A DNA stretch of 64,000 nt, taken from positions 210,095 to 274,094 of the forward strand of contig JBEKNE010000001.1 in the NCBI GenBank assembly GCA_049523135.1, written 5' to 3'. Source of the DNA: Candidatus Microgenomates bacterium. Its GTDB lineage: Bacteria; Patescibacteriota; Microgenomatia; UBA8517. The notes beneath the pieces are model-generated. The model saw only the letters and a program-made list of their open reading frames with translations. It was not told where the DNA came from and made no database searches. Shown here one piece after another: positions 3,693 through 60,892 of this stretch (positions are counted from its first letter, which is position 1; each line of letters starts with the position of its first letter). A program made the position numbers and the translations under genes.

Positions 3693-4326
3693 TCCAATCG
3701 GTATAAGAATAGGCAGTTTCCTACCTTGGAAGTCAAGGTGGTTTGCTGATCAGGGAAATTTCCGGAATTTCCTGATTGAGGACGTGAGAATCAGAAAAGA
3801 ACTAACCAAGAAGTTGAAGCTGGCAGGAGTAACCGGAGTTGAAATCGAAAGATTGCCTAAAAGCATGGTGGTAATAATTACGGTTAGCCGTCCGGGAGTT
3901 GTTATTGGTAGAGGGGGAACCGGAATAGAAGATGTTAAAAAGTACATTTTGGGAATTATGAGTGAAGTCAGGAGGAAACCTGTAAAAGATCTTAAGATTG
4001 ATATAAGGATTAATGAAGTAAAAAATCCCGAACTTTCGGCATATTTGGTTGCGGAAAGAATTGCGGGGGAAATGGAAAGAAGAATCCCCCACAGACGTGC
4101 GGTTCAGAAAGCAATTGAACGTGTGATGGCATCCGGAGCTCTTGGGGTTAAAGTAGTTGTTGCTGGTCGTATAAACGGCGCGGAAATTTCCAGAGTTGAA
4201 AAATTCCATCAGGGTTCGGTTCCAACACAAACTTTGCGCGAGAATTTGGATTATGCCCAAGTTCCGGCACTTTTGAAGAGGGGTTATGTAGGGGTAAAAG
4301 TTTGGATTCACAAAAAGCAGGAATAA
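3676..4326 (+). CDS. rpsC: 30S ribosomal protein S3
   Basis: MGQKVNPIGIRIG... KH domain start typical of S3. Confidence 0.95.
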   Translation: MGQKVNPIGIRIGSFLPWKSRWFADQGNFRNFLIEDVRIRKELTKKLKLAGVTGVEIERLPKSMVVIITVSRPGVVIGRGGTGIEDVKKYILGIMSEVRRKPVKDLKIDIRINEVKNPELSAYLVAERIAGEMERRIPHRRAVQKAIERVMASGALGVKVVVAGRINGAEISRVEKFHQGSVPTQTLRENLDYAQVPALLKRGYVGVKVWIHKKQE

Positions 4327-5221: not shown

Positions 5222-5587
5222 ATGTTGCAACTTAGAAGCATACTGGTACCGGCGGATAATAGCGGAGCAAGAAGGATTATGGTAATCGGTGTTCCCGGGA
5301 GAGTCGGCAAGTTTGCAACTCTTGGAGATGTTGTTTTAGGAGTTGTCAAGGAAGCCGATCCGGCAGGAATTGTCGGACATCACGAAAAAGTCAAAGTACT
5401 TATTGTGCGCACAAGGAAAGAAGTCAGAAGGCGTGACGGAAGCTATATCAGATTTGATGATAATGCGGGAGTTGTTATAGATAAACAAGGTCTTCCCCGC
5501 GGCACCAGAATTTTAGGGCCGATTGCAAGGGAAGTTAAGGAAGCCGGTTATAACAAAATAGCATCACTCGCCCGTGAGGTAGTATAA
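5222..5587 (+). CDS. rplN: 50S ribosomal protein L14
   Basis: MLQLRSILVPADNSGARRIMVIGV... typical L14 (MIQ..T.L.VADNSGA). Confidence 0.95.
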   Translation: MLQLRSILVPADNSGARRIMVIGVPGRVGKFATLGDVVLGVVKEADPAGIVGHHEKVKVLIVRTRKEVRRRDGSYIRFDDNAGVVIDKQGLPRGTRILGPIAREVKEAGYNKIASLAREVV

Positions 5588-5597
5588 AAATAAAAAT

Positions 5598-16414: not shown

Positions 16415-17515
16415 ATGGAAGGTGGCGTGTCTGAAATTCCAAACGTTTCTCCTGAAAGTAAAGAAATGGAACCTATCACTCTGGAGCAAACTTGTGTTAT
16501 TGGAAGTGTTTTCTATAAAGATTATCAAGTTGAAAATTCGGAAGGCAGTGTCAGGGGACATGAGGCGATTGATTCCTTGATGAAAATTGCAGAAAAAGGC
16601 TATAAGGCAGCAGTAATTATTGGTGAAGGAACTGACCAGAAATTTTTGGACGATTTAAAGAAAAGATTGTCTGGCCTTGGAGATAAAGGAGAAAACATTG
16701 TTTGGCATATTCAAGAAAAACCTGGCTATAGTGAGGCAAGACGGGAATCTGTAATACTTGCTTGGAGCAAATACCCTGAGACAAAGGCTTTCATAATGCA
16801 AGAGATTGAAAAAGATCTGACCAAAGATCAAGGATATGAGAAATTCTTGGATGCCCTTTCCGATAATAAAATTTTGGTAATGATGAATAGGGGCATAGAT
16901 GCTCCCTATAATGGAAATTATTTTTCTGATGCGAATATACCAAAAGAGCAGTTTTGGGGAGAAAGACATCAAAATATTGAAATGGCTGGTCAAGAAAATG
17001 CCGCGGGATTGACCAAGAAGGAACATGATTGGGACAGATTAAGTGATACACGTGCTATAAGAAATGAAGAAATAGAAATCGGAAACACAAAGATTAATCC
17101 GGCGGACTTGATACTTTTAAAATATCAATACGTAGACGGTTACAACGAGGGTGATAGAAAAAATAAGATAGATGCTTATTCGGCAGCAGTTTACAATATG
17201 GTCCCAATTTTGGAAGCATTAGGATTTGAAGATCAAATGGCAGAGGCTCCGATAAAATATGCTCATTCGGAAAAACAAAGAGAACAAGAAGAGGGTAACC
17301 CCGTTTTTAGAGCAAAAAGATTGGGACATAAAGTAGATCTGCCTGCTATTAATTTTGATATTGTTGCCAATATTGTGGAATGGAAAAAAGAAGGCAAATG
17401 GCCGTCGATTTTACTCGAAGCGATTAAAGGCGACCATACGCTAAATATAAAACACTTCAATGAAGATGATTATAGTTTGACTGGGACTATTTTAAGAAAG
17501 AATCCGGCTTTCTAA
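16415..17515 (+). CDS. Hypothetical protein (366 aa) appended to the r-protein cluster; no recognizable domain
   Basis: Long clean ORF 40 nt after rpsI. No motif recognized by eye; likely soluble. Confidence 0.55.
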   Translation: MEGGVSEIPNVSPESKEMEPITLEQTCVIGSVFYKDYQVENSEGSVRGHEAIDSLMKIAEKGYKAAVIIGEGTDQKFLDDLKKRLSGLGDKGENIVWHIQEKPGYSEARRESVILAWSKYPETKAFIMQEIEKDLTKDQGYEKFLDALSDNKILVMMNRGIDAPYNGNYFSDANIPKEQFWGERHQNIEMAGQENAAGLTKKEHDWDRLSDTRAIRNEEIEIGNTKINPADLILLKYQYVDGYNEGDRKNKIDAYSAAVYNMVPILEALGFEDQMAEAPIKYAHSEKQREQEEGNPVFRAKRLGHKVDLPAINFDIVANIVEWKKEGKWPSILLEAIKGDHTLNIKHFNEDDYSLTGTILRKNPAF

Positions 17516-17542: not shown

Positions 17543-17770
17543 TTATACTTTTGGGGCAAATTTTTTCTGTCTTTGAAGAAATGATATATGTCTTTTTTCC
17601 TGTTCTTGAGCCAAAAATATTTCAACTTTTTTCTGACATTCAGGGTCAGGACACGAAGTTTCCTGATAGGTAACAACACTGTTTCCGATTTTTTCCGTTC
17701 TTGTTGAAACAACAATTCTTTGCTTTCCGCACTTAACACAAACACTTGGGTTATTTTTATTAGTAACCAT
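17543..17770 (-). CDS. Small zinc-ribbon protein (75 aa; CxxC...CxxC)
   Basis: CVKCGK ... CPDPEC; antisense orientation; alternative-frame ORF 17512..17745 rejected. Confidence 0.45.
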   Translation of the reverse strand: MVTNKNNPSVCVKCGKQRIVVSTRTEKIGNSVVTYQETSCPDPECQKKVEIFLAQEQEKRHISFLQRQKKFAPKV

Positions 17771-17916
17771 TTATTTGCCTAAATATGCGCTTTTAAGATA
17801 AATGGATAATTTATGTGAGGATCTTACCAATGAATCTGTAAGTGAATTATTTAAACTAATCTCATTATACCACTCTTTACTTTGATAAGTGGGATTTGCT
17901 ATGCGGAAGACAATTA

Positions 17917-17945
17917 TTGGCCAAATCGAAATGAAATGTTAAAAT
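17917..17945 (+). promoter_or_regulatory. Candidate promoter for the tRNA-like gene (TTGGCC - 17 - TAAAAT)
   Basis: -10 TAAAAT at 17940-17945, 8 nt before the predicted tRNA 5' end. Confidence 0.35.
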
Positions 17946-17953
17946 ACGCATTA

Positions 17954-18024
17954 CGGGGTGTAGTTCACCGGTAGAATGGGCGCACGGGGTGCGTCCGAAC
18001 TGAGTCCAATTCTCAGCACCCCGA
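17954..18024 (+). tRNA. tRNA-Pro(GGG)-like gene, 71 nt, no encoded CCA, non-canonical C33 and C55 in my hand fold
   Basis: Cloverleaf folds as acceptor CGGGGTG/CACCCCG plus A73 (typical tRNA-Pro), D arm GTTC-ACCGGTA-GAAT, anticodon arm GGCGC-ACGGGGT-GCGTC, 4-nt variable loop, T arm CTGAG-TCCAATT-CTCAG. A14, G18G19, A21 and G53-C61 are conserved. The odd loop positions may mean a degenerate copy. Confidence 0.5.
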
Positions 18025-18080
18025 CTATAGGGTATTAAGTAGGTATTGACTTCGTATTTCCTTCGGGGTGACAATTAAAT

Positions 18081-18926
18081 ATGGTTACTTCTCTTCAAAA
18101 ATGTACTTTTTGTGGAAAACCAGTATACCGTGACAATAGAAGAATTAATGAAAGTAAAAAACGTAGGTGGAGAATATTTTGTTCTCAAAAGTGCCTTGCC
18201 CTGTCACGAAGGACTCGAAAAGAGTACATATGTGCCAGAAAGGGTTGTGGAAAGCATTTCACAAGAAATCCGGGTGAATTATATAGATCAAAGATATTTT
18301 ATTGTTCCTTAAGGTGCGCTGCTTTAGTAAATAATAAGCTACGGAAGAAAATTATCCGAATATGCCCAACTTGTAACGGAAAATTTACTGGTAAAAATAA
18401 ATATTGTTCATCTGTGTGCATACCTAAACGTGGGTCTAAGTACACAAGAGAAATTGTTATAGAAATAATCACGGAATTTTATAAAAAACATGAACGAATA
18501 CCTGTAAAAAAAGAATTGTATGGTTGTTATAGAGTAGCAAGAAAATATTTTGGAACTTGGAATAAAGCCATTGAGGCCGCTGGTTATAAACCAAATCCAG
18601 TGATGTTTTCCAATAAATATATTGCAAAAGACGGAGATAAATGTGATTCTTTGGCTGAGAAGATAATTGACGATTATTTATCAAGACGGAATATTAAGCA
18701 TATACGAAATTTCCCATACCCTGGAAATGATGGGTTTAAGGTAGATTTTAAAGTTGAAGATAATTGGATTGAATTTTTTGGTTTGTCTGGGCAATTAAAA
18801 AGTTACGATCAGATTGAGAGGAGAAAGTTAAAGCTTACTAAAAAATTGGGGATCAATTTGATAAAGATTTATCCAGAAGATCTATTTCCAATAGGTAAAC
18901 TTGACAAAAAACTAGTTTTTTCTTGA
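18081..18926 (+). CDS. Homing-endonuclease-like protein: three FCS/TRASH-type zinc fingers + HEARO-like repeat + C-terminal Vsr/DUF559-like PD-(D/E)xK nuclease domain
   Basis: Zinc fingers CTFCGK..FCSQKC, CARKGCGK..YCSLRC and CPTCNG..YCSSVC. YGCYRVARKYFGTWNKAIEAAGY resembles the homing-endonuclease-associated repeat. SLAEKIIDDYL...VDFKVEDNWIEFFG resembles the DUF559/Vsr core (VDF...IEvDG). Domain calls are from memory of family consensus. Confidence 0.55.
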   Translation: MVTSLQKCTFCGKPVYRDNRRINESKKRRWRIFCSQKCLALSRRTRKEYICARKGCGKHFTRNPGELYRSKIFYCSLRCAALVNNKLRKKIIRICPTCNGKFTGKNKYCSSVCIPKRGSKYTREIVIEIITEFYKKHERIPVKKELYGCYRVARKYFGTWNKAIEAAGYKPNPVMFSNKYIAKDGDKCDSLAEKIIDDYLSRRNIKHIRNFPYPGNDGFKVDFKVEDNWIEFFGLSGQLKSYDQIERRKLKLTKKLGINLIKIYPEDLFPIGKLDKKLVFS

Positions 18927-19232
18927 CCTTTATTTTGAATATTCGTAAAGATATGAGAAGGAAGGATGCGGAATTTCATAAAGGGTGAGGGCAAATCGCC
19001 GCCCCCTTCTCAATTCAGATGCAAGAATTACTTAGGCTAAAGATACATGAGGGTTTTATCAAAATAAAGCAAACATTTCAGGAGTAGAAGTCGTTGGTCA
19101 CGCCAGACTTGAACTTGAAAGAAAATCGGGTAGAAAAGTCTCGATGAGGAACAATTATTTGATGGGCTACAGGGACGGAAAGTCAATTGGGTCTTGAATT
19201 TTAATTTGGAAGAATGTAAAAGGAATTCTGAC

Positions 19233-20315
19233 ATGGTAAAAATAAAAAAACCCGAAGTAGAAGCTCCAGTCAAGCAGGAGGGTGGCTCTGCGAAACTTCA
19301 AGCAATAAGGCTTGCCATGGACCAGATTGAGAAACAATATGGAAAAGGCTCAATTATGCGTCTGGGTGGTGAAGGCGAAAGATACAAGATTGACGTCATC
19401 TCTACAGGTTCTATAGCGGTCGATCTAGCCCTTGGAGTAGGAGGACTACCAAGAGGTCGTATTACAGAAATCTACGGTCCTGAGGCCTCTGGTAAGACCA
19501 CGCTGGCCTTGGCGGTTATTGCTGAGGCACAGAAGCGCGGCGGGCAGTGTGCTTTTGTGGATGCCGAACACGCACTCGACCCGCAGCGTGCTGAAATCCT
19601 TGGCGTTGACCTTGATAATCTTCTTATGTCCCAGCCCGATACAGGCGAGCAGGCTCTCGAGATTACGGAAACCTTAATCCGCTCGGGTGCTATCGACGTA
19701 GTTGTTGTCGATTCCGTTGCTGCCCTTGTACCGCGTGCCGAGCTTGAAGGAGAAATGGGAGATGCTGTTATGGGAATGCAGGCACGTCTTATGTCTCAAG
19801 CCCTTCGTAAATTAACCGGTGCTATCTCCAAATCAAAAACTGTTCTTATCTTCACAAATCAACTTCGTCAGAAGATCGGAGTTATGTTTGGCAACCCTGA
19901 AACCACCCCCGGCGGACTTGCTCTTAAGTTTTATTCATCGGTAAGAATCGACCTTCGAAGAATCGAAGTTCTTAAAGACGGAGAAAAGGTAATCGGATCC
20001 CGCCATAGAGCCCGTATTGTTAAAAATAAAGTTGCACCTCCCCTCAGAGTTGCCGAATTCGATATTATGGAAACCGAAGGAATTAGTAAAACAGGTGGGC
20101 TTCTTGATGTAGGACTGGAACTTGGACTGATAGGTAAAAGCGGCTCATTCTTTAACTATCAGGGCAAGCCAATTGCACAAGGAAAAGAAGCCGCCAAGTT
20201 ATATCTAAGGGATAATCCCAAAGTTGCCGATGAAATTGATAAGAAAATCCGCGAAATGGTAGCTAGTGGTAAGAAGCTCCCCAAGGAAATTGGAGAAGAG
20301 GAAAAAGAAGAGTGA
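19233..20315 (+). CDS. recA: Recombinase RecA
   Basis: Walker [14 protein letters not shown]1/L2 loops, MAW-like core; start at MVKIKK (ATG 19233), the ORF-track start 19194 is an extension. Confidence 0.95.
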
Positions 20316-20328
20316 GTCTCTCTAAAGA

Positions 20329-20967
20329 TTAATAAATTGGTCCGTAGTGATGATGTGTTGGGGCTTGGGGACAGTTTTTAACTTCTCCCCAATACCAACC
20401 AAATTGTTCTTTATCGAATCCTGTAATTTTTTCCAAAGCCGCCTTAAACTTTTTTACTTTATTAAGCACCTCTTCATCAGGTAATTCCTCTTCAGACTTA
20501 AATTGCCTAAAATGAACATTCTTTTCATCTTGTGTAGTACTAACGGAAGTTTTAAATATGACAGTTTTCCATCTTGTAAGGATTTCCTGTTTCTTTAAAT
20601 ATAATTCTTTCTCGGTGGCATACTTATCTGCAGTTTTCTTTATAGAAGAAATATCATTAATTTTGTCTAGCTTGCTTTTAATAATGTTGTCTGGTGTTAA
20701 AGAAATTTTCTTTTCTGCGAGTTCAATTTGTTGATCAAGTTTATGGTTGAGTTGAGCACAAGATGCTGCTGGGTGAAAATCTGCGCTTTCAAGATAATGA
20801 ATGAACCCATCCGAATATCGAGTGTTACTCATTTTTTCTGTGCAAAAGTTTTCAGGGGTAAGTTCTACGCCAGTTAAGGAAGCACATATTTGTATAAGTT
20901 TGGTGTGGGGACAGTAAGGTCCTTTTTCGTAATCATCTGGATAATTGTGCCGCCTTTCATCGAACAT
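20329..20967 (-). CDS. Hypothetical protein (212 aa) antisense between recA and recX
   Basis: Clean ORF on the opposite strand; no recognizable family; N-terminal Cys/His-containing region then Lys/Glu-rich helical region. Confidence 0.5.
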   Translation of the reverse strand: MFDERRHNYPDDYEKGPYCPHTKLIQICASLTGVELTPENFCTEKMSNTRYSDGFIHYLESADFHPAASCAQLNHKLDQQIELAEKKISLTPDNIIKSKLDKINDISSIKKTADKYATEKELYLKKQEILTRWKTVIFKTSVSTTQDEKNVHFRQFKSEEELPDEEVLNKVKKFKAALEKITGFDKEQFGWYWGEVKNCPQAPTHHHYGPIY

Positions 20968-28670: not shown

Positions 28671-28702
28671 AACAAAAAATCCCGCTTGTGCGGGACTTTT
28701 TG
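28671..28702. terminator. Bidirectional intrinsic terminator (TCCCGC-TTGT-GCGGGA flanked by A6 / T5)
   Basis: Stem-loop with T-run on the plus strand (ends the permease transcript) and U6 on the minus strand (ends rnpB). Confidence 0.8.
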
Positions 28703-29013
28703 TACTCTGGAAAAGAGTAAGCCAGGTTCTGTTTTTCGATGATCATCCATCTAACGCCCTCGAACCTCGGGACTCGGGAAAGCGCTTCAAACGTCCCTTT
28801 CGGAGGTTGCAGCGGGGAGGATTGCCTCTTTTCACTCGTTTTCTTTTACCTTTAGGGTAAGAGACTCGACATAGTTTCTGTGGCTCTATACTGGCCAAAC
28901 CCAAGGTTTCCCTTGAGCCTGTCTCCGGCTTACGCCAGACACCCTGCTTTCTGCTGCCTGGACTTTCCTCACCAGCCTTGTGAGGCTAGCGCGATCATCC
29001 TTTCTCCAGAGTG
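28703..29013 (-). ncRNA. rnpB: RNase P RNA (bacterial type, compact ~310 nt)
   Basis: Minus strand reads ...GGUGAGGAAAGUCCAGGC... (CR-I/P4 5' strand) and ...ACAGAACCUGGCUUAC... (CR-V/P4 3' strand), with an A-U covariation relative to E. coli CCGGG/CCCGG. P1 pairs CUCUGGAG with CUCUUUUCCAGAG, P2 pairs GAUGAUCG with CGAUGAUCAUC, and P3 is the hairpin CCUCAC-AAGGCUG-GUGAGG. GUGAAA and ACAGAAAC motifs are present. The region is GC-rich and ORF-free on both strands. Confidence 0.85.
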
Positions 29014-38448: not shown

Positions 38449-39789
38449 TTATGACTTTTGGGAAAGTGCAGCTATTAAATCTTCTTTATTATTTTCAATT
38501 TCCTTATTTACTACTTTTTCAAATAGGTCATTCAGTATTTTTCCGACTTCCGGACCCGGTTTAAGGTTAAGCTCTTTCATCACGTCATTTCCGTCAATCT
38601 TCAGATCGCGAACAGTGAAGGGTTCCTTTTGAACTTCGATAAGTCTTTTCTTAAATTCCTCGAGCCGCCATGAAGTTTCCCTGGCTCCCCCTCCAAGTCT
38701 GTCTGCAACCCGAAGAGCTAGCATATCATCCATATTTTCCAGGCCCACATTCCGTAAAATTCTTCTTATGGCGGAGTCTGTTTGATGTTCATCAACCGTG
38801 AATTGATGCCACCGGATAAGTTTTATAAATTTGTCCTTTTCTTTATTGGAAAATCTAAGTCTGTCCGCAATGTTTTCGGCAATTTTAGTTGAAACCATTT
38901 CATGATTATAAAAAGTTATAGTTCCGGTTGAGAGTTTTTTATAAGTTTGGGGTTTACCAATATCATGAACTAAAGTTGCAAAGCGTGTAACAGGATCTGG
39001 CGATTTACAAAATTTCAGAGACATCAGAAGATGATTCCCAACATCATAAATGTGGTGACGCCCTGGGGATTTTTGCTCGACGCCGAAGCACTTTTCCATT
39101 TCCGGTAGAATTTCCTGCATAAGTCCGGAATTCCTGAAAAGAACCATCCCCTCATAGGGATTTGGAGATGCAAAGAGTTTAAAAAGTTCATCTTTTACTC
39201 TCTCTTTGGCGATTTTATTGATTAGAGGAGCGTTTTTTTTGATTGCTTCAAATGTCTTATTCTCGATGGTAAAGCCAAGTTCTGCGGCAATCCTTACGGC
39301 TCTCATCATTCTCAAGGCATCTTCGGAGAATCTTTCATTCGGATCTCCAACTGCTCTAATTAATTTATTTTTTATATCCTCTTGCCCTTTGTATAAATCG
39401 ATAATTTTAAGATTTTTATCGAGAGCCAATGAATTAATTGTAAAATCGCGCCTTGCCAAATCCTCTTCTAAGCTCTTTCCCCAGACAATTTTGGTTGGAT
39501 GGCGAAAGTCTTCGTACCCCTCTTCGGTTCTGAAAGTCGTTATTTCGTGAGGACGTTCAGGATCATCCGGATTATCCGTAAATACCGTACCGAACTGATT
39601 GTTATAAAGCCCACCGGGGACCACTTTTAAAATTTCTTCAGGGGTGGCATTGGTTGTGAAGTCCCAATCATTTGTAATTCTGCCCATAATGATGTCCCTG
39701 ACGGCTCCCCCCACGATATAAATTTCATATCCGGCTTTATCAAATTTTTCCAAGATATCTTTTACCGATTTTGGTAATTGGACTTCCAT
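38449..39789 (-). CDS. cca: CCA-adding enzyme (tRNA nucleotidyltransferase) with HD domain
   Basis: Pol-beta NT motif IYIVGGAVRDIIMGR...DWDF, HD motif LVHDIGK; start at MEVQLPKS. Confidence 0.88.
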   Translation of the reverse strand: MEVQLPKSVKDILEKFDKAGYEIYIVGGAVRDIIMGRITNDWDFTTNATPEEILKVVPGGLYNNQFGTVFTDNPDDPERPHEITTFRTEEGYEDFRHPTKIVWGKSLEEDLARRDFTINSLALDKNLKIIDLYKGQEDIKNKLIRAVGDPNERFSEDALRMMRAVRIAAELGFTIENKTFEAIKKNAPLINKIAKERVKDELFKLFASPNPYEGMVLFRNSGLMQEILPEMEKCFGVEQKSPGRHHIYDVGNHLLMSLKFCKSPDPVTRFATLVHDIGKPQTYKKLSTGTITFYNHEMVSTKIAENIADRLRFSNKEKDKFIKLIRWHQFTVDEHQTDSAIRRILRNVGLENMDDMLALRVADRLGGGARETSWRLEEFKKRLIEVQKEPFTVRDLKIDGNDVMKELNLKPGPEVGKILNDLFEKVVNKEIENNKEDLIAALSQKS

Positions 39790-39815
39790 GGCTATATAAG
39801 ATAAATTATACCAGT

Positions 39816-41426
39816 ATGAAGTGGGAAGTATTAGACAAATCATCGATATCGGATACAGAGTCAGTCGTAAATGTACTTCTTAAAAATAGGGGAATAAAGG
39901 GTGAAAAACAAAAGGAAGAATTTTTTTCACCAACTCTTCCCTCCAAAATTTTACTGAAATTTCTGGGTGTAAAAGAATCTGAGGTTAAAAAAGCAATTGC
40001 CAGAATTAAAAAAGCAAAGAAAAACAAGGAATTTGTAATTGTTTATGGAGATTATGATGCAGACGGAATTACGGCAACGGCAATTATGTGGGAAGCGCTC
40101 CATTCCTTTGGACTTGATGTTTTACCCCATATTCCGGATAGATTTGAGGAAGGATATGGAATTAATGCGGAAAGTATTCAGAGTCTTAAAACCAAAATTC
40201 CAAATTTAAAACTTATTGTGACAGTTGATAACGGGATTGTCGGTTATGAAGGAATTGAATCTGCTAAAAAATTGGGAATTGATGTTATCGTAGTTGATCA
40301 CCATACAAAGGGAACAAAAAACCTCAGTGCCCAAAGTGTAATTCACACGACAATGACTTCAGGTTCCGGTTTAGCATGGTTTTTTGCCCGTGAGTTGATA
40401 ATCATCCCAAATACTTTAGAATTGGCTGCAATCGGAGTAATCGCAGATCAGATTCCCCTGATTGGAGTGAATAGGTCAATTGTAAAATACGGGCTTCAGG
40501 AATTAAATAACACTAAAAGACCGGGTCTCTTAGCTCTTTTTAAAGAAGCAAGAATAGAAAAGGTTGGTGTGTATGAAGTGGGTTACATGATTGCTCCAAG
40601 GATAAACGCGATGGGCCGATTAAAAAACGGGATTGAATCGCTTCGTCTGCTTTGTACTAAAAATAAACTTAAGGCTTTTGAAATTGCCAAAAATATAGGA
40701 GGTATAAATTCTGAACGGCAAAAGATTGTTGAAGAGGTTCTTCTTCTTGCACGGAAGAAAGTGACCAATGAAAAAATTATAGTAATATCAGGTGAGAATT
40801 ATCACGAGGGAGTAATAGGACTTGCGGCGGGACGTCTGGTTGAGGAGTTTTATCGTCCGGCAATAGTATTTTCGGTAAAAGGAGATATTTCAAAGGCATC
40901 TGCCCGTTCCGTAGTAGGATTTAACATAATTGAAGCAATTAGGGGGGTAAATCTTCATCTCGAAGGTGGAGGGCATCCTATGGCGGCCGGATTTTCTATT
41001 GAAACAGAAAAAATTGACAAATTTACCAAGGAGATAAATAGATATGCCAGTAAATTGTTAACCAATGAGCTGTTATCAAAAAAACTAAGAATTGATTGTA
41101 AAATTGGTTTTGATCAATTGAATTATGATCTGATAAAGAAACTTGATGAGTTTGAACCGACGGGGTTAGGCAATCCTGGGGCTACGTTTATGTCAAAGCG
41201 CGTAGAAATAATAAGTGTAAAACCTGTCGGGCGTGAGGCAAGACATCTGAAGATGAAACTAAAACAAGATGAATATATTTTTGACTCAATATTTTTCGGT
41301 GGAGGAGAAATGTACTCAAAGTTAATTCCAAATTCAAAAATTGATATAGTTTATCAAATTGAGGAGAATATTTGGAATGGATATAAATCAATTCAGCTAA
41401 AAATAAAGGATATAAACAAAAATTAG
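39816..41426 (+). CDS. recJ: Single-stranded-DNA-specific exonuclease RecJ
   Basis: DHH motifs (VIVYGDYDADGITA, VDHH), DHHA1 (GGGHPMAAG); start at MKWEVL. Confidence 0.9.
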   Translation: MKWEVLDKSSISDTESVVNVLLKNRGIKGEKQKEEFFSPTLPSKILLKFLGVKESEVKKAIARIKKAKKNKEFVIVYGDYDADGITATAIMWEALHSFGLDVLPHIPDRFEEGYGINAESIQSLKTKIPNLKLIVTVDNGIVGYEGIESAKKLGIDVIVVDHHTKGTKNLSAQSVIHTTMTSGSGLAWFFARELIIIPNTLELAAIGVIADQIPLIGVNRSIVKYGLQELNNTKRPGLLALFKEARIEKVGVYEVGYMIAPRINAMGRLKNGIESLRLLCTKNKLKAFEIAKNIGGINSERQKIVEEVLLLARKKVTNEKIIVISGENYHEGVIGLAAGRLVEEFYRPAIVFSVKGDISKASARSVVGFNIIEAIRGVNLHLEGGGHPMAAGFSIETEKIDKFTKEINRYASKLLTNELLSKKLRIDCKIGFDQLNYDLIKKLDEFEPTGLGNPGATFMSKRVEIISVKPVGREARHLKMKLKQDEYIFDSIFFGGGEMYSKLIPNSKIDIVYQIEENIWNGYKSIQLKIKDINKN

Positions 41427-60817: not shown

Positions 60818-60892
60818 TGCGGGATCGTCTAACCGGTAGGACACGGCCCCCTGGAGGCTGGTATCGGGGTTCAAATCCCTGTCCCGCAGCCA
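60818..60892 (+). tRNA. tRNA-Gln (anticodon CUG by hand fold), 75 nt with encoded CCA
   Basis: Cloverleaf folds as acceptor TGCGGGA/TCCCGCA (U1-A72) + G73 + CCA, D arm GTCT-AACCGGTA-GGAC, anticodon arm CGGCC-CCCTGGA-GGCTG, T arm CGGGG-TTCAAAT-CCCTG. Position 33 reads C in my fold, which is unusual. Confidence 0.7.

Follow-up and report, generated by a model that had tools for sequence, protein, structure and literature searches.

A putative homing-type endonuclease gene family linked to tRNA-Pro(GGG) genes in Patescibacteria

Phages and organelles are well-known hosts of free-standing homing endonuclease genes. To our knowledge, they have rarely been described as long-lived residents of bacterial chromosomes. 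The present analysis concerns a stretch of 64,000 nucleotides (nt) from a Candidatus Microgenomates bacterium (assembly GCA_049523135.1, contig JBEKNE010000001.1, positions 210,095 to 274,094), referred to here as the window. It contains an open reading frame (ORF) of 281 amino acids (aa) at 18081-18926 on the + strand, which starts 56 nt past A73 of a tRNA-Pro(GGG) gene and encodes three putative zinc fingers, a homing-endonuclease-associated repeat (HNH_repeat) and a predicted Vsr-like nuclease domain. On balance, though narrowly, we regard the ORF as a gene for a homing-type endonuclease that is free-standing and confined to the tRNA-Pro(GGG) locus, with the pattern expected of a selfish element.

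SegB is a free-standing GIY-YIG homing endonuclease encoded in the tRNA gene cluster of phage T4. Similar to SegB, the window ORF is a free-standing nuclease gene beside a tRNA gene, is present or absent at one place among relatives, and would be expected to cut the ORF-less allele nearby and to be copied in by recombination. In contrast to SegB, the window family is Vsr-like, is found on cellular chromosomes across a phylum-level radiation and not in a phage, always lies beside one particular tRNA, and appears to be long-lived and mostly vertically inherited. Free-standing homing endonucleases of phages have been treated in the literature (PMC2988022, PMC13096335). Our literature search found no free-standing endonuclease family linked to tRNA-Pro(GGG), and none tied to a single tRNA species across a radiation. 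What is new here is the domain architecture, the chromosomal home, the radiation-wide distribution and the linkage to one tRNA.

The EDxHD family of homing endonucleases was founded by I-Bth0305I, an enzyme of Vsr-like fold whose N-terminal DNA-binding region is modular (Taylor et al. 2011, PMC3239194); the family was also described by Dassa et al. (2009, PMC2677866). In structural comparison, the C-terminal domain of the window protein came closest to I-Bth0305I. In both proteins an N-terminal DNA-binding module, which is helical, is followed by a C-terminal Vsr-like nuclease, and residues E193, D197, H207 and D222 of the window protein stand in the composite EDxHD order. The phage relatives of the window ORF behave as free-standing endonuclease genes, as do members of the EDxHD family. 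Unlike I-Bth0305I, the window protein is known from its sequence and predicted fold, and shows no detectable sequence similarity to that enzyme. Its family is chromosomal in Patescibacteria and does not lie in a phage intron or intein, it accompanies a tRNA gene instead of sitting inside a protein gene, and three putative FCS zinc fingers and the HNH_repeat take the place of the NUMOD motifs of I-Bth0305I.

Two further groups of proteins share features with the window protein. The Vsr and DUF559 proteins have the same restriction-endonuclease-like fold; phage DUF559 proteins and proteins annotated as DNA mismatch endonuclease are found among its matches in BFVD, and 3hrl among those in the Protein Data Bank (PDB). 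The window protein differs from them in giving no Pfam or NCBIfam match to these families, Vsr lacks its extra DNA-binding modules, and nothing suggests a function in mismatch repair. The RAP and FASTK proteins of organelle RNA processing (PMC11879112) are comparable in their Vsr-like fold, and mitoribosomal proteins occur among the fold matches of the window protein. The mRNAs of some ORF relatives, which would start at the 3′ end of a tRNA, also recall tRNA punctuation. This likeness is one of fold and gene position, and the accessory domains of the window protein are those of DNA homing endonucleases.

Linkage to tRNA-Pro(GGG) and occurrence at one locus

The ORF belongs to a family of more than 479 homologues, mostly from metagenome bins of Patescibacteria. 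For the linkage survey, 80 ORF loci were fetched from species-representative genomes. The window raised this number to 81, and the three closest ORF-carrying relatives (L081-L083) were added. Five ORF loci were left out of the linkage count because contig ends cut their upstream sequence. In all 79 evaluable loci a tRNA-Pro(GGG) gene, on either strand, adjoins the 5′ end of the ORF. With default settings, ARAGORN placed this gene directly upstream of the ORF in 64 of the 80 loci (65 of 81 with the window), and a lower threshold revealed it in 2 further loci. The 11 evaluable loci missed by the default run were considered as possible exceptions to the linkage; this was rejected, since each proved to have a GGG-anticodon cloverleaf with 21 of 21 stem pairs and odd T or D loops. 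L081, L082 and L083 all carry tRNA-Pro(GGG) beside the ORF.

The ORF always faces the tRNA with its 5′ end. The gap between the two genes is 0-95 nt in all loci except L077 (199 nt), L010 (586 nt) and L081 (about 100 nt). At least six gene orders surround the tRNA-ORF pair. The order of the window, S9..tPro>ORF>recA>recX>rny, recurs in other loci with the pair inverted as a unit (rny<recX<recA<tPro>ORF>) or with the tRNA alone inverted (tPro<ORF>recA>), and a further order reads c9<c11<c12<c5<tPro>ORF>. The recA gene adjoins the ORF in 35 of the 81 loci, and the tRNA linkage persists where recA lies elsewhere. The tRNA-Pro(GGG) gene is the only neighbour that is constant in all contexts, and we therefore infer that the target of the enzyme would lie in or beside this gene.

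The ORF of the window is preceded by a promoter at 18046-18075 (+ strand), which was found by a consensus scan and consists of a -35 box TTGACT, an 18-nt spacer containing TTCG..TTCGG and a -10 box GACAAT. The ATG follows 5 nt after the -10 box and no Shine-Dalgarno sequence is present, so the mRNA of the ORF is probably leaderless. Many loci have a motif of the form TTGAC(T/A)..TTCGG..TTCGG..TAnnAT ahead of the ORF, independently of tRNA orientation and context. The direct repeat TTCG(G)...TTCGG, with units about one helical turn apart, is found at 18052-18067 and in the spacers of L001, L005, L012, L020, L023, L049, L053 and L058; it might serve as an operator, perhaps in autoregulation. The sequence CTATAG(G) lies directly 3′ of the tRNA in 8 of 20 same-strand loci. 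Together with about 270 nt of trailing sequence, the promoter and the ORF form a cassette bounded exactly by the tRNA on one side and the recA promoter on the other.

The occurrence of the cassette varies among close relatives. To obtain an ORF-less sample, metagenome contigs were scanned with the 5′ half of the window tRNA. This gave 119 loci, among them 53 with tRNA-Pro(UGG), 37 with tRNA-Pro(CGG) and 20 with tRNA-Pro(GGG), and the ORF is present in none. The ORF-less tRNA-Pro(GGG) genes come from one clade only, the window's own tRNA clade. The RecA proteins of the ORF-less loci L108, L117, L129 and L160 are 92-96% identical to that of the window (92-93% for L129 and L160). The site is filled in the window and in L081-L083 and empty in L129 and L160, which read S9, tRNA, recA promoter (CCCCATTGAAT..TGTAAAAG) and recA. 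The recA promoter of the window (19194-19222, + strand; TTGAAT, 17 nt, TAAAAG) is homologous to this sequence of L129 and L160, has a homologue in L115 as well, and forms the downstream border of the ORF insertion. In L115 and L117 the sequence TTGACTTCG..TTCGG..TAATAAT lies between the tRNA and the recA promoter and no ORF is present. Since this sequence is the ORF promoter in ORF-carrying loci, L115 and L117 have lost the ORF. The same remnant is found in L108 and L148, where the tRNA is inverted. Among the ORF copies themselves, 5 of 81 carry stops, frameshifts or truncations. The intact ORFs have ratios of nonsynonymous to synonymous substitution rates (dN/dS) of 0.06-0.13, which shows purifying selection.

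We propose that the three zinc fingers and the HNH_repeat would read a long DNA site, which the Vsr-like (EDxHD-type) domain would cut. The ORF, wedged between the tRNA and the recA promoter, would use its own promoter and be transcribed into a leaderless mRNA. In chromosomes without the ORF, the enzyme would cut the tRNA-Pro(GGG) gene or a site beside it, and RecA-dependent repair from an ORF-carrying copy would then copy the ORF in. Later decay or deletion of the ORF would balance such re-invasion. The turbulence of the locus at the DNA level, which includes inversions of the tRNA or of the pair, partial tRNA duplicates and the replacement of the tRNA in L081, fits repeated breakage.

The encoded protein and the readings of its function

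The N-terminal part of the ORF (18102-18419, + strand) encodes three Cys4 units of the FCS/TRASH zinc-finger type at aa 8-38, 51-79 and 95-113. In an alignment of 31 homologues, the 12 cysteines that form the three CxxC...CSxxC units (C8, C11, C34, C38, C51, C56, C75, C79, C95, C98, C109 and C113) are invariant or nearly so. The zf-FCS profile matches 10 of the 31 relatives (best E-value 5e-4). The window protein gives no zf-FCS match; only weak matches to L24e (E 0.07), to an MYM-type finger (E 0.08, PDB) and to L33 were obtained. The three fingers of the original prediction are candidates suggested by the Cys4 units and their invariant cysteines, with zf-FCS profile matches confined to relatives. 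The fingers are followed by the HNH_repeat PF18780 (18441-18590, + strand; aa 121-170; Pfam E 1.1e-9), a three-helix module of the DNA-binding type that Pfam names 'homing endonuclease associated repeat'. It is the sole significant Pfam match of the window ORF and is present in 31 of 31 family members; the NCBIfam search of the window ORF gave no match. The repeat thus stands as originally predicted, whereas the label HEARO attached to it was a mislabel: HEARO denotes an element of RNA and ORF, Rfam found no HEARO RNA in the window or the region, and Pfam found no HNH nuclease domain in the ORF.

The C-terminal part (18630-18890, + strand; aa 184-270) is recognized by invariant columns and by its predicted restriction-endonuclease fold. 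Residues D184, G185, C188, S190, E193, D197, H207, Y213, D222, E231, Y242 and K249 are invariant, the phage relatives included. The AlphaFold2 (AF2) models have a predicted local distance difference test score (pLDDT) of 83.5 for the full-length protein and of 84 for the C-terminal domain, the latter with a predicted template modelling score (pTM) of 0.77. In both Foldseek searches against the PDB, the catalytic domain of I-Bth0305I (3r3p, chain 3r3p_A) was the first match, with prob 1.0, E 2e-3 and template modelling (TM) scores of 0.58/0.65. TnsA, the DUF559-like protein 3hrl and mitoribosomal proteins, probably of the RAP type, followed. Among the viral models of BFVD, 38 matches with E-values of 1e-3 or below, down to 3e-7, were obtained, many of them annotated as DUF559, homing endonuclease or mismatch endonuclease. 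Four relatives on viral contigs (32-36% identity) lie away from tRNAs, in two copies per contig, beside LAGLIDADG-type ORFs. In L203 (2497-5889) and L205 (1688-4624), paralogous pairs of ORFs with an HNH_repeat and the nuclease domain stand next to LAGLIDADG-type ORFs and make up, together with them, a group of homing-endonuclease-like genes.

Several findings weigh against the reading of the ORF as a homing-type endonuclease gene, and the first of them concern the protein. The profiles of Vsr (PF03852) and DUF559 (PF04480) match neither the window protein nor its 31 relatives at E-values up to 1, and no sequence similarity of the nuclease domain to I-Bth0305I or to solved structures is detectable. 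The Vsr-like assignment, which was part of the original prediction, is carried by the predicted fold, including the matches to 3r3p and to DUF559 proteins in BFVD, and holds at fold level only. E193-D197-H207-D222 fits the EDxHD motif by order alone and is a candidate catalytic set. The wider family of the nuclease domain counts 2545 representatives (E-values of 1e-3 or below), some of which are fused to TPR, HEAT or HhH modules, and it also matches a defence-candidate model; the fold alone is thus no proof of homing. The target site of the enzyme is a putative one, placed in or beside the tRNA gene. In addition, the tRNA sequence does not account for self-immunity, since the ORF-carrying L082 and the ORF-less L161 have identical tRNAs.

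The second group of these findings concerns inheritance. ORF identity rises with RecA identity (Pearson 0.41), and the pairwise comparison revealed no pair in which the ORFs are more alike than the RecA proteins, and hence no recent transfer. Losses are documented and gains are not. Synonymous sites are saturated even between the closest genomes, which makes co-conversion tracts invisible and means that even 'close' relatives have long been separated; dating by synonymous divergence (dS) and the search for co-conversion tracts were dropped for this reason. The scaling of ORF divergence with RecA divergence and the record of losses would equally be expected of a domesticated, host-beneficial nuclease that was inherited vertically from an early ancestor of Patescibacteria, acts at the tRNA-Pro(GGG) locus and was lost in many lineages. 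Such a nuclease could, for example, regulate the tRNA and recA promoters or serve local repair or recombination. The strong purifying selection, the position beside recA in 35 of 81 loci and the conserved TTCGG..TTCGG repeat of the promoter, which could be an operator, agree with this explanation. We consider it rather doubtful, because close relatives with the same tRNA and recA manage without the ORF and because the tRNA linkage persists when recA is elsewhere. Furthermore, the invariant set of acidic, histidine and lysine residues suggests that the protein is an active nuclease and does more than bind, and the nearest structural and phage relatives are homing endonucleases.

The third point concerns the site itself. 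In other relatives the spacer between the tRNA and recA carries other cargo, namely NUDIX, methyltransferase-like and unknown genes, and so does the spacer between S9 and the tRNA. By these gene contents, the tRNA-recA spacer is a general variable spot. No other homing endonucleases were found in the tRNA-recA gaps of the ORF-less relatives, only ordinary or unknown cargo. With such varied cargo, the ORF could be a gene for defence or a toxin that has settled in a variable hotspot next to a tRNA, the tRNA being a mere landmark of insertion. The PADLOC model PDC-S69 indeed matches the protein (E 2e-7), in the nuclease domain only (aa 176-269 against model positions 177-271 of 289). This explanation could hold for the window's clade and yet fails to account for the exclusive tie to tRNA-Pro(GGG) in every context and class. 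No integrase was found among the ORF neighbours and no tRNA-end duplicate at the window locus, and none of the examined neighbourhoods revealed partner genes, an integrase or an att-type structure travelling with the ORF. A defence or toxin gene is therefore very unlikely in our view.

One alternative of the original prediction, a tRNA-targeting homing endonuclease or mobile remnant, is now the leading explanation, owing to the linkage in 79 of 79 loci, the absence of the ORF from close relatives and the predicted fold. Cleavage, target and homing are the parts of it that we infer.

The tRNA-Pro(GGG) gene and its unusual loops

The tRNA-Pro(GGG) gene was called by ARAGORN at 17954-18025 (+ strand), with positions 1-73 at 17954-18024 and one trailer base. 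It folds into a complete cloverleaf with stems of 7/4/5/5 base pairs. The acceptor stem reads CGGGGUG/CACCCCG, the D-arm GUUC-ACCGGUA-GAAU, with a 7-nt loop ACCGGUA that includes GG, and the anticodon arm GGCGC-ACGGGGU-GCGUC, with the loop A-C-GGG-G-U. A variable loop of 4 nt and the T-arm CUGAG-UCCAAUU-CUCAG follow. The minimum free energy (MFE) fold has a z-score of -2.9. Bacterial prolyl-tRNA synthetase (ProRS) recognizes the proline identity set G72, A73, G35 and G36. The window tRNA carries this set and also G37; its ends are C1-G72 and A73, and the C1-G72 pair is invariant in 78 distinct orthologues. Bacterial tRNA-Pro(GGG), for example E. coli proL, has a GGG anticodon, G37, A32-U38, C1-G72 and A73, all of which recur in the window tRNA. 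The latter is unlike proL in having C33 and C55, in being compact, in lacking an encoded CCA and in falling below the Rfam threshold, as does its whole clade. The combinations A32..U38 and C32..G38 dominate among the tRNA-Pro(GGG) orthologues.

A promoter for the tRNA was located by consensus scan at 17917-17945 (+ strand), with a -35-like box TTGGCC, a 17-nt spacer and a TG-extended -10 box TAAAAT. The -10 box lies at 17940-17945 and ends 8 nt before tRNA position 1; TG(T/G)TAAAAT stands at equal distance upstream of the tRNA in L081, L082, L083, L115, L117 and L129. A73 is followed by C-T-A; the gene thus lacks an encoded CCA and depends on a CCA-adding enzyme acting in trans. This enzyme is encoded in the window at 38449-39843 (- strand), with the Pfam domains PolyA_pol head, RNA-binding, tRNA_NucTran2_2 and HD. 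A bacterial type A RNase P RNA is found at 28702-29010 (- strand; Rfam 105.8 bits against a threshold of 100) and is short, with 309 nt. We propose that the tRNA-Pro(GGG) gene is the working gene of the genome, that it would be transcribed from its own extended -10 promoter with a leader of 1-3 nt, and that its product would be matured by RNase P, receive CCA from the encoded enzyme and be charged by ProRS through G72, A73, G35 and G36. The proline-type cloverleaf, the -10 box and the CCA-adding enzyme had all been stated in the original prediction and were confirmed here by the ARAGORN call, by conservation in relatives and by the Pfam domains, respectively. Re-reading of the sequence likewise bore out the C at 17985 and at 18006 (both + strand), which correspond in the ARAGORN fold to position 33, normally U, and position 55, normally U or pseudouridine (Psi), and the lack of an encoded CCA.

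C33 and C55 strike two of the most conserved tRNA positions, and the Rfam tRNA model RF00005 does not match the window gene, neither at the gathering score of 29 bits nor in a relaxed run at E-values up to 10 on a 91-nt slice. The element could on these grounds be a decaying pseudogene or a chance cloverleaf, which we regard as highly improbable. RF00005 also misses the U33/U55 siblings L160, L117, L082, L129 and L124, so the miss is not caused by C33 and C55, and Rfam was rejected as arbiter of the tRNA status. The model scores the tRNA-Pro(GGG) of L081, which is of a different type, at 62 bits. The whole compact tRNA-Pro clade, with a 7-nt D-loop and a variable loop of 4-5 nt, is below the gathering score of RF00005 despite perfect cloverleaves. 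At each of the 21 stem positions at least 77 of the 78 orthologues are paired, with up to 5 pair types. Such covariation of intact stems marks a gene under selection for tRNA structure and not a decaying copy. The gene has the same promoter and occupies the same slot between S9 and recA as the gene of the relatives, and it differs from the genes of ORF-less siblings at positions 33 and 55 only. L083 keeps C33 and C55 across saturated synonymous divergence, with a compensatory change of the 26:44 pair, and many tRNA-Pro genes of the lineage that look functional have C55. The alternative of the original prediction, a degenerate or regulatory tRNA copy, is not supported by these findings.

The history of the two substitutions can be followed in the relatives. 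The tRNAs of the closest ORF-less siblings, L124 and L160, are identical to that of the window except for T at positions 33 and 55, and the nearest ORF-carrying relative, L083, has both C33 and C55, retained at a dS above 1 relative to the window. The 26:44 pair is G26-C44 in the window, U26-A44 in L083 and A26-U44 in further siblings. The window tRNA differs from that of L160, and that of L083 from L117, only at positions 33 and 55, from which a parallel double origin could be read. It was rejected because the window and L083 are mutual nearest relatives (RecA dN 0.037). C33 would thus predate the split of the window and L083 and have been kept since; one origin with later changes of the 26:44 pair is the simpler course.

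In the T-loop of the window tRNA, U-C-C-A-A-U-U, T54 and C56 are kept and the T54-Psi55-C56 motif is broken at position 55. Among the fetched loci, a TCC T-loop occurs in 21 of 66 other tRNA-Pro genes, in 5 of 20 ORF-less tRNA-Pro(GGG) genes and in 8 of 109 other tRNAs. C55 was rejected as a mark of ORF-linked tRNAs, TCC being common in tRNA-Pro(UGG/CGG) and in ORF-less tRNA-Pro(GGG); on these counts it is a lineage trait of the tRNA-Pro isoacceptors and no peculiarity of the window gene. C33 was found in 5 of 68 ORF-linked tRNA-Pro(GGG) genes (window, L083, L021, L049 and L054) and in 2 of 191 other tRNAs. The enrichment beside the ORF has a Fisher p of 0.015 with relatedness ignored, and the association is a lead only. 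Both other C33 tRNAs are the same tRNA-Leu(GAG), with the loop CCGAGGA, in L128 and L147, so C33 also occurs sporadically in other tRNAs of Patescibacteria. In the predicted fold with C33, a C33-G37 pair narrows the loop to the three anticodon bases. Methylation of G37 to m1G37 would block this pairing. The idea that C33 and C55 are immunity mutations is unsupported, since the ORF-carrying L082 has the wild-type tRNA. By itself, the C33/C55 tRNA is a modest curiosity.

Stronger deviations were met in other members of the family. The genes of L003 (107-180), L007 (3908-3981), L018 (3906-3979), L019 (3855-3927), L026, L029, L030, L042, L043 (about 3840-3980), L046 and L062 have perfect stems and rewired elbows. 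Their T-loops GGCGGAA, GGCAGTA, AGCGTTA and GGCGGTA lack T54-Psi55-C56 and their D-loops AGATAG(T)TA or AAAAGTA lack G18G19; these loops cause ARAGORN to miss the genes at default settings. In L003, L007, L018, L026, L029, L060, L064-L067 and L074 the ATG of the ORF follows 0-3 nt past the tRNA discriminator (...CCCCGAC, then ATG; L007 about 3981-3990). In the subclade of the L007 type, tRNA and mRNA must therefore share one transcript. Processing at the 3′ end of the tRNA would then release an mRNA without a leader, which makes the arrangement a bacterial counterpart of tRNA punctuation.

These tRNAs raise the question of an RNA-level partnership, in which the ORF product would be a Vsr/RAP-like RNase with L24e/L33-like zinc ribbons that binds and processes the tRNA-Pro(GGG) precursor and its own co-transcript and so lets the tRNA elbow and anticodon loop drift. 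The subclade with the nearly fused genes accords with it, as do the many ORF-linked tRNAs with aberrant T-loops and GG-less D-loops, which were met only beside the ORF, and the fold matches to mitoribosomal, probably RAP-type, proteins. Vsr-like FASTK/RAP proteins process RNA (PMC11879112). We judge this explanation quite unlikely. In fold, the ORF product comes closest to DNA homing endonucleases and DUF559 proteins, and the HNH_repeat is a DNA-binding module of homing endonucleases. Many ORF-linked tRNA-Pro(GGG) genes are fully canonical, the tRNA can sit on the opposite strand, where no co-transcript would exist, and the putative association of aberrant tRNAs with the ORF relies on ORF-less genes from a single clade.

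If the ORF is instead a homing-type endonuclease gene, as we prefer, its nuclease might cut inside the tRNA-Pro(GGG) gene itself, and an arms race might reshape tRNA nucleotides that are normally fixed. This extension seems unlikely to us, although somewhat less so than the RNA-level partnership. If true, it would account for C33, the rewired elbows, the tRNA inversions, the partial duplications and the allele replacement in L081. Non-canonical tRNA evolution in Patescibacteria would in that case be driven directly by a selfish DNA element, and the element of one subclade would in addition use tRNA 3′ processing for its own leaderless mRNA.

Other rearrangements and neighbouring genes

In L081 (tRNA at 5523-5596), the ORF and RecA are those of the window clade (73-80% and 96% identity, respectively). 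The tRNA-Pro(GGG) next to them is canonical and of quite another type, most similar to the ones in L001 and L012; at this ORF the tRNA allele has been replaced. Partial copies of the tRNA were observed in several relatives. Positions 1-20 are duplicated 35-85 nt upstream of the full tRNA-Pro, after the tRNA promoter, in L108 (about 1098-1117), L160 (about 310-329) and L163 (about 2100-2120), counted with the tRNA on the + strand. The spacers inserted at these duplicates are related (..GCCGCTGAA..), and the arrangement suggests that repair or an insertion has left a scar at the D-loop. In L085, L095, L127, L149 and L069, 16 nt from the 3′ end of tRNA-Pro (57-72) recur 50-160 nt downstream of the gene and resemble att-type scars of small insertions. 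In L090, L102, L105, L110, L151, L154 and 3 more loci among L164-L202, the tRNA-Pro sequence extends through its 5′ half only, as far as the D-arm or anticodon loop. Unrelated sequence comes next, and no tRNA is called by ARAGORN. These could be truncated or intron-containing tRNA-Pro genes. Group I introns have been described in tRNA genes of Patescibacteria (PMC13011429).

Downstream of the ORF cassette, recA (Pfam RecA E 6e-132) is located at 19233-20315 (+ strand). Its true start is the ATG at 19233, about 10 nt after the -10 box, and the TTG at 19194 with which the listed ORF begins is the -35 box TTGAAT; the tblastn alignments of relatives begin at residue 14 of the longer recA ORF. Upstream, two ORFs separate rpsI (S9) from the tRNA: u366 (366 aa, 16415-17515, + strand) and the Cys-rich zn75 (75 aa, 17543-17770, - strand). 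Close relatives have only 35-130 nt between S9 and the tRNA, so u366 and zn75 represent a second insertion at the locus. A further ORF, u212 (212 aa, 20329-20967, - strand), lies between recA and recX and is missing from L117, L129 and L160, where recX directly follows recA. Family searches with u366, zn75 and u212 gave no informative match. ARAGORN found two tRNAs in the 64-kb window; besides tRNA-Pro(GGG), this is a fully canonical tRNA-Gln(CUG) with a UUC T-loop (60818-60892, + strand).

Rfam misses one tRNA-Pro clade of Patescibacteria and ARAGORN at default settings another group, so counts of 'missing' tRNAs can be artefacts, and tRNA counts in genomes with compact tRNA-Pro genes may be underestimates. 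If the ORF family is what we take it to be, it would offer a natural system for studying the long persistence of a selfish nuclease in tiny genomes. It would also allow study of what a Vsr-like homing enzyme with zinc-finger reading heads recognizes, which bears on enzyme engineering, and it would provide a system for asking whether such elements shape tRNA genes.

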